Shown in pieces: positions 13,689-18,414 of a stretch of DNA of 64,000 nucleotides. The notes under the pieces were generated by a model. It made no database searches and had not been told where the DNA came from. It saw nothing but the letters and a program-made list of their open reading frames with translations. The stretch's first letter is position 1. Each line of letters opens with the position of its first letter. This stretch comes from Escherichia coli (GTDB taxonomy: Bacteria > Pseudomonadota > Gammaproteobacteria > Enterobacterales > Enterobacteriaceae): the NCBI RefSeq assembly GCF_030384885.1, contig NZ_CP128613.1. One strand, 5' to 3'. The translations under genes were made by a program, and so were the position numbers.

Positions 13689-14245
13689 TGACGGGAAAAC
13701 TGATTTGGTTAATGGGGGCCTCTGGCTCCGGAAAAGACAGTCTGTTGACGGAACTCCGCCAGCGGGAACAAACTCAGCTACTGGTAGCGCATCGCTACAT
13801 CACGCGCGCCGCCAGCGCCGGAAGTGAAAACCATATCGCCCTGAGCGAGCAGGAGTTTTTTACCCGCGCGGGGCAGAACCTTCTGGCCTTAAGCTGGCAC
13901 GCCAACGGCCTGTATTATGGCATCGGCGTCGAGATTGACCTCTGGCTGCACGCTGGATTTGACGTGGTGGTCAACGGCTCACGCGCCCATCTACCGCAGG
14001 CGCGGGCGCGCTATCAATCGGCGCTGCTGCCCGTTTGTTTACAGGTTTCGCCAGAGATCCTGCGCCAGCGCCTGGAAAACCGTGGCCGTGAAAACGCCAG
14101 TGAAATTAACGCCCGCCTGGCGCGTGCGGCCCGCTATACTCCACAGGATTGCCATACGCTCAACAATGACGGCAGCCTGCGCCAGTCGGTCGACACGCTG
14201 CTGACGCTGATTCATCAGAAGGAGAAACACCATGCCTGCTTGTGA
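13688..14245 (+). CDS. phnN: Ribose 1,5-bisphosphate phosphokinase PhnN
   Basis: 185 aa; P-loop GASGSGKDS. Confidence 0.9.
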
Positions 14246-14666
14246 GCTTCGTCCGGCCACGCAGTACGACACCGACGCGGTTTACGCGCTGATTTGTGAG
14301 CTAAAACAGGCGGAGTTTGACCACCACGCGTTTCGCGTGGGGTTTAACGCCAATCTGCGCGACCCGAACATGCGCTACCATCTGGCGCTGCTGGATGGCG
14401 AAGTTGTCGGCATGATCGGCCTGCATTTGCAGTTTCATCTGCATCATGTCAACTGGATCGGCGAAATTCAGGAACTGGTGGTGATGCCGCAGGCGCGCGG
14501 TCTGAACGTCGGCAGTAAATTACTGGCATGGGCCGAAGAAGAAGCCCGCCAGGCCGGGGCCGAAATGACCGAGCTTTCCACCAACGTCAAGCGCCACGAC
14601 GCGCACCGTTTCTATCTGCGCGAAGGCTACGAGCAGAGCCACTTCCGCTTCACCAAGGCGCTGTAA
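14232..14666 (+). CDS. phnO: Aminoalkylphosphonate N-acetyltransferase PhnO (GNAT)
   Basis: 144-aa ORF; operon position. Confidence 0.9.
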
Positions 14667-14667
14667 C

Positions 14668-15426
14668 ATGAGCCTGACCCTCACACTTACTGGCACTGGC
14701 GGCGCACAGGGTGTTCCCGCATGGGGCTGTGAGTGCGCGGCCTGCGCCAGAGCGCGGCGCTCACCGCAGTATCGCCGCCAGCCATGCAGCGGCGTCGTGA
14801 AGTTTAACGACGCGATCACCCTGATCGACGCCGGGCTGCACGATCTCGCCGATCGCTGGTCGCCCGGATCGTTCCAGCAGTTTTTGCTGACGCACTACCA
14901 TATGGATCACGTGCAGGGGCTGTTTCCGCTGCGCTGGGGCGTGGGCGATTCGATCCCGGTCTACGGCCCGCCGGATGAACAGGGCTGCGACGATCTGTTT
15001 AAACATCCGGGCCTGCTTGATTTCAGCCACACGGTGGAGCCATTTGTGATGTTTGATTTGCAGGGATTACAGGTCACGCCGCTGCCGCTCAACCATTCGA
15101 AACTCACTTTCGGCTATCTACTGGAAACGGCACATAGCCGGGTGGCGTGGCTGTCTGACACCGCAGGCCTGCCGGAAAAAACGGTGAAATTTTTACGCAA
15201 TAATCAGCCACAGGTAATGGTGATTGATTGCAGCCACCCACCGCGCGCGAATTCGCCACGCAATCACTGTGATTTAAACACCGTGCTGGCGCTGAATGAA
15301 GTTATCCGCTCGCCGCGCGTGGTTCTGACACATATCAGCCATCAGCTTGATGTGTGGCTGATGGAGAACGTACTGCCGTCAGGGTTTGAGGCGGGGTTTG
15401 ATGGGATGGAGATTGGGGTGGAGTGA
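14668..15426 (+). CDS. phnP: Phosphodiesterase PhnP (metallo-beta-lactamase fold)
   Basis: 252 aa; HxHxDH motif [10 protein letters not shown]. Confidence 0.9.
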
Positions 15427-15460
15427 TGGGTGAGGGGCGATGCCTGCTCTAAACTCAACA

Positions 15461-15790
15461 TCACCGCCCATACTCATCTTCCATTCTCCGCTCTTCATCT
15501 TCTAGCTGCCGACGCTCCTGATCCAGCTGGCGCTGGCGATCGTCCAGCTGCCTGCGGCGATCTTCAAACTGGCGGCGGCGATCGTCATATTGTCTGCGCC
15601 GATCGTCGTTCACTTCACGCTGCCAGCCGTCGTCGCGCGAATCTTCATAGTCTCGCCCACGGTCAGGGTTATAAGCATCGTTAATCGCCTGCTGAATATT
15701 GCCAATGGTGTCGTCGATAATATCGGCCTGGGCCGGAACGGTGGACAGCGTGAGCAGGGTGAATAAAAGAAATAGCGGAAAACGTTTCAT
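15461..15790 (-). CDS. yjdP: Small secreted repeat protein YjdP
   Basis: 109 aa; signal peptide MKRFPLFLLFTLLTLSTVPAQA followed by reiterated D/R/Q-rich units. Confidence 0.8.
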   Translation of the reverse strand: MKRFPLFLLFTLLTLSTVPAQADIIDDTIGNIQQAINDAYNPDRGRDYEDSRDDGWQREVNDDRRRQYDDRRRQFEDRRRQLDDRQRQLDQERRQLEDEERRMEDEYGR

Positions 15791-15858
15791 TAGCCAACCT
15801 CAAAAAGAAACTCTATCCACATTAGTCATTACTCATCCATGCAAGTAGTGGATGAATC

Positions 15859-16176
15859 TCAATTTTTCCGCTGCTCTATTGCCGTAATCGCCTCCACGCG
15901 TTGTTGATGACGACCGCCTTCGTACTGCGCGCCCAGCCACACATCCACAATCATTTTTGCCAGTTCGAGGCCAACCACTCGTGAACCAAAAGCCAGTGCA
16001 ACTTCACTGGCGTAATGCGGATAATCAGTGCGCTCTGACGACCTGGTTTCTTTATCAATCCCCTCACTCATTGACCATGAATAAAAGGCTGGCACAGCAA
16101 CGCAGAATCCTGCGGTGCCAGCGACATGACCGCCCATTGCTCCGGTACGTTTTTTAATAAGAAACACCGGTTGCAT
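15859..16176 (-). pseudogene. rpiB: rpiB remnant (ribose-5-phosphate isomerase B, internally deleted)
   Basis: 105-aa ORF whose C-terminal ~55 aa (FGSRVVGLELAKMIVD...QRVEAITAIEQR) match the RpiB C-terminus as I remember it, while the N-terminal part does not and the central catalytic segment is missing. Confidence 0.55.
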
Positions 16177-16428
16177 TGATTAATTGTGCTCAGTATTTGC
16201 CGAAGTACAATATATATAATAAATATATAAAACACCTCATATTATTTACAGAAATAATAAATTCGCGTACTTTTCCCTCTTCAGCACAAATGCCTAATAA
16301 AATGGCTCGTTCCGCTCACACTTCCACTTATTAAAGTCGCAAATTCCCAATTATGATAACGCCAGCTTTAAATGACGTATTTTGCATGGATTACATATTT
16401 ACGACATAAATGATAAATGGAGATTTAT

Positions 16429-18414
16429 ATGAATAACTCTCGGTTATTCCGTTTGAGCAGGATTGTTATTGCGTTAACTGCCGCCAGCGGCATGATGGTA
16501 AATACCGCTCACGCAACAGATGAAGCGAAAGCCGCGACTCAATATACCCAGCAGGTTAATCAGCATTACGCAAAATCATTACCGTTTAGCGATCGTCAGG
16601 ACTTTGACGATGCCCAGCGCGGATTTATCGCCCCGCTGCTGGATGAAGGTATTCTGCGCGATGCGAATGGCAAAGTTTACTACCGCGCGGATGATTACAA
16701 ATTTGATATTAATGCCGCTGCGCCGGAAACCGTAAACCCCAGCCTGTGGCGTCAGTCGCAGATCAACGGCATTTCTGGCCTGTTCAAAGTCACCGATAAA
16801 ATGTATCAGGTACGCGGCCAGGATATCTCTAACATTACATTCGTTGAGGGCGAGAAAGGCATTATTGTTATCGACCCACTGGTAACGCCGCCTGCCGCAA
16901 AAGCCGCACTTGACCTTTACTTCCAGCATCGTCCGCAAAAACCGATTGTTGCTGTGATTTACACCCACAGCCACGCCGATCATTATGGCGGTGTGAAAGG
17001 CATTATCTCTGAAGCGGATGTTAAATCTGGCAAAGTGCAGGTGATCGCTCCGGCAGGCTTTATGGACGAAGCCATCAGCGAAAACGTGCTGGCGGGTAAC
17101 ATCATGAGCCGCCGTGCGCTCTACTCTTACGGTCTGTTACTGCCGCACAACGCGCAAGGCAACGTTGGCAACGGCCTGGGCGTGACGCTGGCAACGGGCG
17201 ACCCGAGCATTATTGCGCCAACCAAAACGATTGTCAGAACTGGCGAGAAGATGGTTATCGACGGTCTGGAGTTTGACTTCCTGATGACTCCGGGTAGCGA
17301 AGCGCCAGCCGAAATGCACTTCTATATTCCGGCCCTGAAAGCCCTGTGTACCGCCGAAAACGCCACGCATACCCTGCACAACTTCTACACCCTGCGCGGC
17401 GCGAAAACCCGCGATACCAGCAAGTGGACAGAGTATCTGAACGAAACGCTGGATATGTGGGGTAACGACGCGGAAGTACTGTTTATGCCGCACACCTGGC
17501 CGGTCTGGGGCAATAAGCATATCAATGATTATATTGGTAAATATCGCGATACTATCAAATACATTCACGACCAGACCCTGCACCTGGCGAACCAGGGTTA
17601 CACCATGAATGAAATCGGCGACATGATTAAGCTGCCACCTGCGCTTGCCAATAACTGGGCCAGCCGCGGCTATTACGGTTCTGTTAGCCACAACGCCCGT
17701 GCAGTATATAACTTCTATCTCGGCTATTATGACGGCAATCCAGCTAACCTACATCCGTACGGTCAGGTGGAGATGGGCAAACGTTACGTGAAAGCGCTGG
17801 GCGGTTCCGCCCGTGTCATCAACCTGGCGCAAGAAGCGAACAAGCAAGGGGATTACCGCTGGTCAGCAGAGTTGCTGAAACAGGTGATTGCCGCCAATCC
17901 GGGTGACCAGGTGGCGAAGAATCTGCAAGCAAATAACTTTGAACAGTTGGGTTATCAGGCCGAGTCCGCCACCTGGCGCGGTTTCTACCTGACCGGCGCA
18001 AAAGAGCTGCGCGAAGGGGTGCATAAGTTCAGCCACGGCACCACTGGTTCTCCGGACACCCTTCGCGGGATGTCGGTCGAAATGCTGTTCGACTTTATGG
18101 CCGTTCGTCTCGACAGCGAAAAAGCCGCGGGCAAAAACATCAGCCTGAACTTCAATATGAGTAACGGCGATAACCTCAACCTGACGCTGAACGATAGCGT
18201 GCTTAACTATCGTAAAACGCTACAACCTGAAGCCAACGCCTCTTTCTATATCAGCCGTGAAGATCTGCACGCCGTGCTGACCGGACAAGCCAAAATGGCG
18301 GATCTGGTAAAAGCGAAGAAAGCCAAAATTATTGGCAATGGCGCGAAACTGGAAGAAATTATCGCCTGTCTGGATAATTTCGATTTGTGGGTGAATATCG
18401 TAACCCCAAATTAA
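16429..18414 (+). CDS. yjcS: Alkyl/aryl-sulfatase-like metallo-beta-lactamase fold protein YjcS
   Basis: 661 aa from ATG 16429 (GGAG RBS); signal peptide; HxHxDH motif [11 protein letters not shown]. Confidence 0.85.

Follow-up and report, generated by a model that had tools for sequence, protein, structure and literature searches.

yjdP of Escherichia coli encodes a predicted exported heptad-repeat protein whose unit number changes rarely

The yjdP locus and its product

The yjdP gene was analysed in a stretch of 64,000 nucleotides (nt) of Escherichia coli DNA (contig NZ_CP128613.1 of NCBI RefSeq assembly GCF_030384885.1), referred to below as the window. The results make it probable that yjdP encodes a conserved exported protein with an array of seven heptads, that rare slippage at the diverged repeats changes the number of units, and that selection holds this number at seven. 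Most of the length variation of yjdP lies not in the heptads but in a signal-peptide repeat of another allele lineage. The features of the gene and its product are as follows.

15461-15790, minus strand: yjdP coding sequence, an ATG-started open reading frame (ORF) of 109 codons and a stop in the ORF list
15798-15801, minus strand: Shine-Dalgarno sequence GAGG of yjdP, 7 nt before the ATG, read from the sequence
15725-15790, minus strand: signal peptide, residues 1-22 (MKR / FPLFLLFTLLTLSTV / PAQA), recognised by inspection, with predicted cleavage before D23
15671-15724, minus strand: amphipathic helix DIIDDTIGNIQQAINDAY at the start of the mature protein, hydrophobic residues spaced 4, 3, 4, 3
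15608-15670, minus strand: acidic linker NPDRGRDYEDSRDDGWQREVN, of low confidence or disordered in structural models
15464-15607, minus strand: seven heptads (six full units and EDEYGR), predicted to form one long alpha-helix and supported by autocorrelation, Tandem Repeats Finder (TRF) and AlphaFold2

The gene had been named yjdP in a sequence-only reading of the window, and the name is correct. The encoded protein matched the NCBIfam equivalog NF041443, 'DDRRRQL repeat protein YjdP', with 147.4 bits (E = 1.2e-43; residues 1-103 on profile positions 1-101 of 101) and belongs to this family at its curated cutoff of 90 bits, and the DNA is 100 % identical to the RefSeq-annotated yjdP of E. coli 2013C-4282. 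In comparison with yjdP of K-12 (b4487), the DNA is 97 % and the protein 99 % identical, the sole amino acid difference being N61 for S61. Pfam PF28054 'YjdP' is recorded on homologues in precomputed annotations; a search of a Pfam-A version that predates PF28054 gave, for this reason, no significant match for the window YjdP. Curation thus already covers the gene, the signal peptide and the repeat architecture. The names 'Skp family chaperone' and 'RNase H-like nuclease', both given by one source, were rejected as low-complexity mis-annotations. As in K-12, where yjdP lies between rpiB and phnP, the window gene is found in the same position: phnP (14668-15426, plus strand), at the end of the phn operon, is convergent with yjdP, and a truncated rpiB-like ORF (15859-16176, minus strand) lies upstream. 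The convergent arrangement of yjdP and phnP is the same in K-12, O157, ST131 and others.

The protein consists of MKRFPLFLLFTLLTLSTVPAQA, DIIDDTIGNIQQAINDAYNPDRGRDYEDSRDDGWQREVN and the heptads DDRRRQY DDRRRQF EDRRRQL DDRQRQL DQERRQL EDEERRM EDEYGR. It had been described as secreted by means of a signal peptide, and inspection agreed with this: the predicted signal peptide has the n-region MKR, a 15-residue hydrophobic core and an A-Q-A/D cleavage site (the slash marks the predicted cut), the features of a Sec-type substrate of signal peptidase I, and the protein has no Cys, hence no lipobox Cys. The junction VPAQA/DIIDD was kept in all alleles examined. From these features, YjdP is a predicted Sec-exported enterobacterial protein. 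The statement that low-complexity sequence makes up almost everything after the signal peptide holds for the last 48 of the 87 mature residues, which form the heptads; it fails for the first 39, which comprise the amphipathic helix and the linker.

Conservation of the protein

yjdP is a real, conserved protein-coding gene. It was present in 5,404 of 5,426 complete E. coli genomes, and in the mature region of five E. coli alleles the proportion of synonymous differences (pS) was 0.10-0.19, with a ratio of non-synonymous to synonymous proportions (pN/pS) of 0.00-0.25. Proteins of the same length, 76-87 % identical, were found in E. albertii, E. fergusonii and several Citrobacter species. Searched exhaustively with HMMER, 1.84 billion cluster representatives gave 51 matches only, among them several full-length proteins of 104-113 residues, 41-61 % identical and of the same architecture. 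Both the number of heptads and their position-specific sequences are kept from Escherichia to Citrobacter. In homologues of 39-64 % identity the sole gap in the alignment of the repeat region was one of 3 residues, in a single sequence, where the first unit begins, and the hydrophobic heptad positions were kept down to 39 % identity. The N-terminal amphipathic helix is nearly unchanged across Escherichia and Citrobacter; the acidic linker is the most variable part among distant homologues.

Expression of K-12 yjdP rose 9.5- and 10.6-fold on inhibition of LolCDE, together with genes of the Rcs, Cpx and RpoS regulons (PMC5105897). In the genome-reduced strain DGF-298 yjdP lies within a 68.5-kb deletion (PMC10652928), and in E. 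coli FLI21 (L005:1574-2679) the gene is split by an insertion of the insertion sequence IS1X2. Together with the 22 complete genomes without the gene, these two cases show that yjdP is dispensable. A literature search revealed no study of the function of YjdP or of its repeats, and queries with 'b4487', 'DDRRRQL' and the repeat DNA strings gave nothing relevant.

Heptad periodicity and variation in unit number

The near-tandem D/R/Q-rich units noted in the sequence-only reading, including the unit string that it quoted, were present. Self-identity of the protein at a lag of seven residues was 0.63, a value equalled by none of 5,000 residue shuffles. The DNA is internally repetitive as well, as had been stated: its self-identity at a lag of 21 nt was 0.65, against 0.35 +/- 0.05 in codon shuffles (equalled by 0 of 5,000), and at 15527-15607 TRF reported 3.9 copies at a period of 21 nt, with 77 % matches. 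The DNA units are nevertheless diverged, being about 65-77 % alike, with the longest exact direct repeat in the gene of 10 nt. Owing to this divergence a repeat search with a 7-nt seed missed the heptads, and TRF and autocorrelation were needed to detect them. The heptad units of the window are therefore not the near-perfect tandem repeats of a simple-sequence contingency locus or a variable-number tandem repeat (VNTR). The units share short direct repeats in register (GACGATCG, GATCGCCGC and GACGATCGCC), and two pairs of them are of importance for the variants described below.

15575-15583 and 15554-15562 (span 15554-15583), minus strand: two copies of GATCGCCGC, 21 nt apart, in units 2 and 3
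15600-15607 and 15579-15586 (span 15579-15607), minus strand: two copies of GACGATCG, 21 nt apart, in units 1 and 2

The sequence-only reading had proposed that such a gene can change its length by slipped-strand or recombinational events and that identical length and sequence across diverse E. coli genomes would speak against this. When yjdP was compared between strains, alleles with 6, 7 and 8 heptads were found, differing by exact multiples of the unit, and the proposal holds with a low frequency of such variants. In systematic samples of 40 and 60 rows of the E. coli ranking the part encoding the mature protein aligned without length change throughout. At least 20 complete genomes (16 + 3 + 1) carry six-heptad alleles of 309 nt, which arose via three different deletions. 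The first is a diverged allele, P0040 (102 residues, six heptads, a fusion of units 2 and 3), which 16 independent complete genomes share in identical or almost identical form and which was indexed in 2,561 blocks of a large protein collection. In the second, ST2747 (three records), unit 1 or 2 is deleted between two copies of GACGATCG, the first two in the array; a third copy lies at 15537-15544. The third, in the single complete genome EC42405, is a deletion of unit 2, flanked by the extended form GA[C/A]GATCGCCGC, an imperfect 12-nt repeat. A gain was found in strain 2017-02-2CC, whose 351-nt allele (8 heptads, 116 residues) differs from that of the window by a tandem duplication of exactly 21 nt, flanked by the copies of GATCGCCGC.

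These last variants are close relatives of the window allele. The gene of 2017-02-2CC shows zero differences from it over the first 183 and the last 100 nt compared and stands in the same truncated-rpiB context, and the alleles of EC42405 and ST2747 differ from it at 1 and 3 of the 283 compared positions, respectively, and carry the N61 marker of its family. On the grounds of N61 and of the near-identity of all three, the lineage of the window allele has yielded both +1 and -1 variants, and 6, 7 and 8 heptads on window-type alleles constitute copy-number polymorphism among close strains of the kind that defines a VNTR.

Further events were seen outside the complete genomes. A deletion fusing units 3 and 4 (P0025) was found on two different synonymous backgrounds in draft assemblies and must therefore have arisen at least twice; it was not found in the complete genomes. 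A Shigella boydii allele (102 residues) carries the same fusion, and one E. albertii assembly has a 123-residue allele with an exact duplication of 42 nt (two units). The events end at exact direct repeats of 8-9 nt, or near-exact ones of 12 nt, between units.

Alleles of another type, P0007, P0010, P0011, P0022, P0023 and P0039, some of them from NCBI assemblies, encode 107-108 residues and have lost one or two codons in CGC-CGC-CGC (RRR) runs of the heptads. Such changes may reflect triplet slippage or sequencing errors.

A nine-nucleotide repeat in the signal peptide of ST131-like alleles

In a second allele family, called here ST131-like, the length varies elsewhere. When alleles of 330, 339 and 366 nt were aligned, all length differences fell within the signal peptide, and the mature part was of 87 residues in all 12 translated alleles. 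In the ST131-like family the hydrophobic core is encoded by a perfect 9-nt repeat, (TTCACGCTG)n, of which the window allele has an imperfect counterpart.

15737-15763, minus strand: degenerate 9-nt triplet TTCACCCTG CTCACGCTG TCCACCGTT (FTL LTL STV) in the signal-peptide core

The window core reads TTC ACC CTG / CTC ACG CTG / TCC ACC and the perfect core TTC AC[C/G] CTG / TTC ACG CTG / TTC ACC. The change from the degenerate to the perfect form amounts to L13F and S16F, plus a silent change of ACC to ACG in most expanded alleles. TRF found no array in the signal-peptide core of the window, and no expansion on a degenerate core was seen in the samples and alleles examined. For strain 5-1 the same program reported a 100 %-perfect 9-nt array of 6.6 copies.

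The perfect-repeat family was present in 543 of 5,426 complete genomes, as counted with an E-value filter keeping only this family. It comprises alleles with 1-12 full copies of TTCACGCTG, and the most common protein length is 118 residues. In a systematic sample of 60 rows, 32 had 5 full copies and 12 had 6; the others had 2 (one row), 3 (seven), 4 (four), 7 (two), 8 (one) and 12 (one). Among the long alleles of the best-ranked list, 18 records had 7 copies, four had 8, and 9 and 10 copies were found in one record each. Records named O25b:H4-ST131 carry 5, 6 and 7 copies, and EC958 carries 5. Expressed as protein, the alleles read were (LFT)2, 3, 4, 5, 6, 7, 10, 11 and 13, and spans in the match tables imply (LFT)8 and (LFT)9 in addition. 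The (LFT)2 allele was found by exact look-up in a collection of 15 billion proteins, and several of the alleles (LFT)3-(LFT)11 have RefSeq WP_ accessions. The perfect-repeat alleles, 321-420 nt long, encode proteins of 106-139 residues (the 106-residue one in drafts only). Along the (LFT)n series the hydrophobic core grows from 12 residues to 45, and the signal peptide as a whole from 19 to 52. Translation of the AREA_487 ORF from the conserved ATG gives 139 residues, but the annotation pipeline PGAP chose an internal start on account of the signal-peptide repeat. A search of the literature available gave no paper describing this polymorphism of the yjdP signal peptide.

The units of 21, 42 and 9 nt are all multiples of three, and every variant allele read stays in frame. 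A switching or modulation of expression by copy change, characteristic of contingency loci, was not found here. There are two closest analogues. In the opa genes of Neisseria, CTCTT repeats lie in the region encoding the leader peptide and vary in copy number by slipped-strand mispairing (PMC3745409), as (TTCACGCTG)n may in yjdP. The opa unit of 5 nt shifts the frame and turns expression on and off, whereas the 9-nt unit of yjdP stays in frame and changes only the length of the core. Human APOB also resembles yjdP in having an in-frame indel of three codons (Leu-Ala-Leu) in the hydrophobic core of its signal peptide (PMC4201729). It differs in that APOB has two or three alleles one unit apart, whereas ST131-like yjdP has at least eleven length classes, from (LFT)2 to (LFT)13; the two also belong to human and E. 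coli, with different export machineries. As a speculative idea, which we hold to be rather unlikely, the 9-nt repeat of the ST131-like alleles could be a heritable, fast-mutating 'dial' that sets the length of the signal-peptide core and thereby alters the routing of YjdP. The options may include post-translational targeting versus targeting by the signal recognition particle, and a cleaved periplasmic versus an uncleaved membrane-anchored product. If this is true, yjdP would represent a kind of contingency locus that acts on export of the protein without frameshifts.

Predicted structure of the mature protein

AlphaFold2, supplied with an alignment of 15 sequences, predicted a single long helix at residues 51-108 with pLDDT (the per-residue confidence score) of 90-97. 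In a model of the mature protein only, a helix at residues 2-18 was followed by a linker of low confidence (pLDDT below 50 at mature residues 22-28) and a helix at 32-86. The N-terminal amphipathic segment was helical in the models, with pLDDT of about 57-70. The distribution of charges agrees with the long helix: among i+3/i+4 pairs in the heptads 36 are attractive, against 21.4 +/- 3.4 in shuffles, and 2 are repulsive, against 20.2 +/- 3.4, none of 10,000 shuffles being as extreme. A hydrophobic residue (Y, F, L, L, L, M) occupies every seventh position of the heptads, at helical-wheel angles of 140-240 degrees. The heptads thus probably form a rigid helix of about 7 nm, stabilised by salt bridges and bearing a hydrophobic seam one residue wide.

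This helix does not have the pattern of a canonical coiled coil, since with L/F/Y/M placed at 'a' the residue at 'd' is R in units 1-4 and 6; the 4, 3, 4, 3 hydrophobic spacing is confined to the short N-terminal helix. A sequence profile search of the PDB returned chance coiled-coil matches only, the best with E = 0.005 (M protein), and a Foldseek search of the PDB with YjdP found no related structure; no characterised family is related either. Single alpha-helix (SAH) domains, also called 'ER/K', have dense and regularly spaced opposite charges that form many salt bridges, and exist as an isolated long helix. YjdP is like them in the dense, regular opposite charges, in the many i to i+3/i+4 salt bridges and in the long predicted helix, and its charge pairs are those expected of an SAH domain. 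It differs from them in composition, the SAH domains being E/K-rich and lacking a seam and YjdP being D/R-rich with a strictly conserved hydrophobic residue at every seventh position, as well as in being bacterial and, by prediction, periplasmic. Under envelope stress, the seam and the N-terminal amphipathic helix would serve self-association in the periplasm or the binding of a periplasmic partner. A second speculative idea, weaker than that of the signal-peptide 'dial', takes the seven-heptad helix to be a length-critical periplasmic spacer, which would explain the conserved number of units.

Neighbourhood of yjdP in different strains

Upstream of the window gene, the region 15791-16420 is without the allose (als) operon and without most of rpiB, of which it keeps a 105-residue remnant ORF (15859-16176, minus strand), some 240 nt away from yjcS (16417-18414, plus strand). 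This arrangement was also found in 2013C-4282, EC42405, 2017-02-2CC and one draft assembly. The same site is occupied by alsR-rpiB in K-12 and by the island OI167 in enterohaemorrhagic E. coli. The locus of K-12 b4487 differs from that of the window strain in nothing essential, only in the presence of the als operon upstream and in the spacer.

The 60 nt upstream of the window yjdP are common to the K-12 and ST131 alleles. A search by eye of the upstream region for a motif resembling an RcsB box gave nothing convincing. Strains with OI167 (O157, 88COLEC) depart from the window in the upstream region and in the first 8-9 codons of the gene (MKRHSTLF versus MKRFPLFL; L003:225-320 and L006:219-310 compared with 15760-15850 of the window). 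This places a replacement boundary inside the signal-peptide codons and implies that a different promoter and ribosome-binding site are used. N-termini of a similar kind ('STLF/PTLF') are found in YjdP of E. albertii, S. boydii and Citrobacter.

Downstream, the spacer between yjdP and phnP has 34 nt in the window (15427-15460), 27 in ST131-like strains, 146 in K-12 (L001:1831-1976) and 76 in O157. A palindromic insert rich in G (...CGCCCCTCTGGGGAGAGGGTTAGGGTGAGGGG...) accounts for the longer spacers, and a G-quadruplex/hairpin element has been reported in the K-12 spacer (PMC5100583). A terminator scan revealed nothing in the 34-nt spacer of the window; two plus-strand 'terminators' called inside the repeats (15570-15587) were rejected as artefacts of the CGC-rich periodic sequence.

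Origin and maintenance of the heptad number

The variants described above suggest that replication slippage or short-homology recombination between direct repeats of 8-10 nt occasionally adds or removes one or two units, always in frame. Unit-number variants have recurred independently, including the +1 and -1 derivatives of the window allele. Since the variants are rare and the seven-unit state is kept across genera, the length of the helix is apparently under purifying selection and does not act as a switch. The heptad number appears to reflect a balance between mutation and selection on a length-constrained helix rather than a contingency locus. In the ST131-like family of the same species, and not in the window allele, point substitutions have made the perfect (TTCACGCTG)n array, a far more mutable repeat, which then expands and contracts.

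Several points weigh against this interpretation. Heptad variants were found in at least 21 of 5,404 complete genomes, or about 0.4 %, and with such rarity 'length-variable' overstates the case for the D/R/Q array. The slippage mechanism is deduced from the end-points of natural variants. The AlphaFold2 models have predicted TM scores of 0.36-0.40 and were built on shallow alignments (13-15 sequences), and with scores this low no tertiary packing can be claimed. The Arg at the canonical 'd' position leaves a classical coiled coil unsupported, and a seam of one residue may be too weak to drive association. Finally, a scan for sigma-70 promoters upstream of yjdP found no consensus promoter.

Three other explanations were considered. 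The best of them, which is still improbable, is that yjdP is a contingency locus, i.e. an adaptive hypervariable locus in which changes in the repeat are selected to vary a surface- or host-exposed protein. The independent recurrence of in-frame gains and losses of units, the predicted export of the protein and the broad stepwise spread of the ST131-like signal-peptide repeat over its 1-12 full copies are what such a locus would show. However, heptad DNA units that are 65-77 % alike, with exact repeats of at most 10 nt, are unlike the near-perfect arrays of contingency loci, and the absence of any out-of-frame change means that there is no on/off switching. The low frequency of heptad variants, the strong purifying selection on the mature protein and the maintenance of seven heptads with unit-specific sequences across genera also argue against such a locus.

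It is very unlikely that the D/R/Q array is effectively fixed and that its length variants are artefacts of sequencing or assembly in a GC-rich repeat. More than 99 % of complete genomes, judging from the systematic samples, do have mature regions of the 330-nt type, and many proteins of odd length (P0001, P0004-P0021) come from short metagenome contigs and have frameshifted C-terminal tails. All variants discussed here, however, were read in complete genomes or in NCBI assemblies, and their differences in length are in-frame and exact multiples of 21 nt; the P0040 allele recurs in independent genomes, the ST2747 allele is the same in three separate records, and single reads span arrays of up to 150 nt.

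Least credible of all is that the functional unit is the periodic GC-rich DNA or a transcript of it (the antisense strand, a structured RNA) and not the ORF: an 84-residue antisense ORF (15430-15684, plus strand) overlaps the repeats and the K-12 spacer has its G-rich element (PMC5100583), but in the yjdP frame synonymous differences are far more numerous than non-synonymous ones, indels always keep this frame, the signal peptide, Shine-Dalgarno sequence and frame are kept down to 39 % protein identity, and an Rfam search of 14000-17500 gave no match at E <= 1.

Implications

A conserved exported heptad protein with a unit number held at seven by selection thus remains the favoured reading of yjdP. 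At the population level, the alleles provide evidence that even a diverged heptad array still recurrently gains and loses exactly one unit at microhomologies of 8-9 nt, when exact, or 12 nt, when near-exact. The signal peptide of yjdP offers a natural example of the birth of a VNTR, in which a few point substitutions make a perfect array. The resulting family, with its eleven or more length classes, is carried by about 10 % of the complete genomes of E. coli, including those of ST131, and its repeat misleads the automatic choice of start codons. YjdP itself is a small, envelope-stress-induced, predicted periplasmic protein with an unusual charge-patterned helix, which makes it a tractable target among the y-genes.

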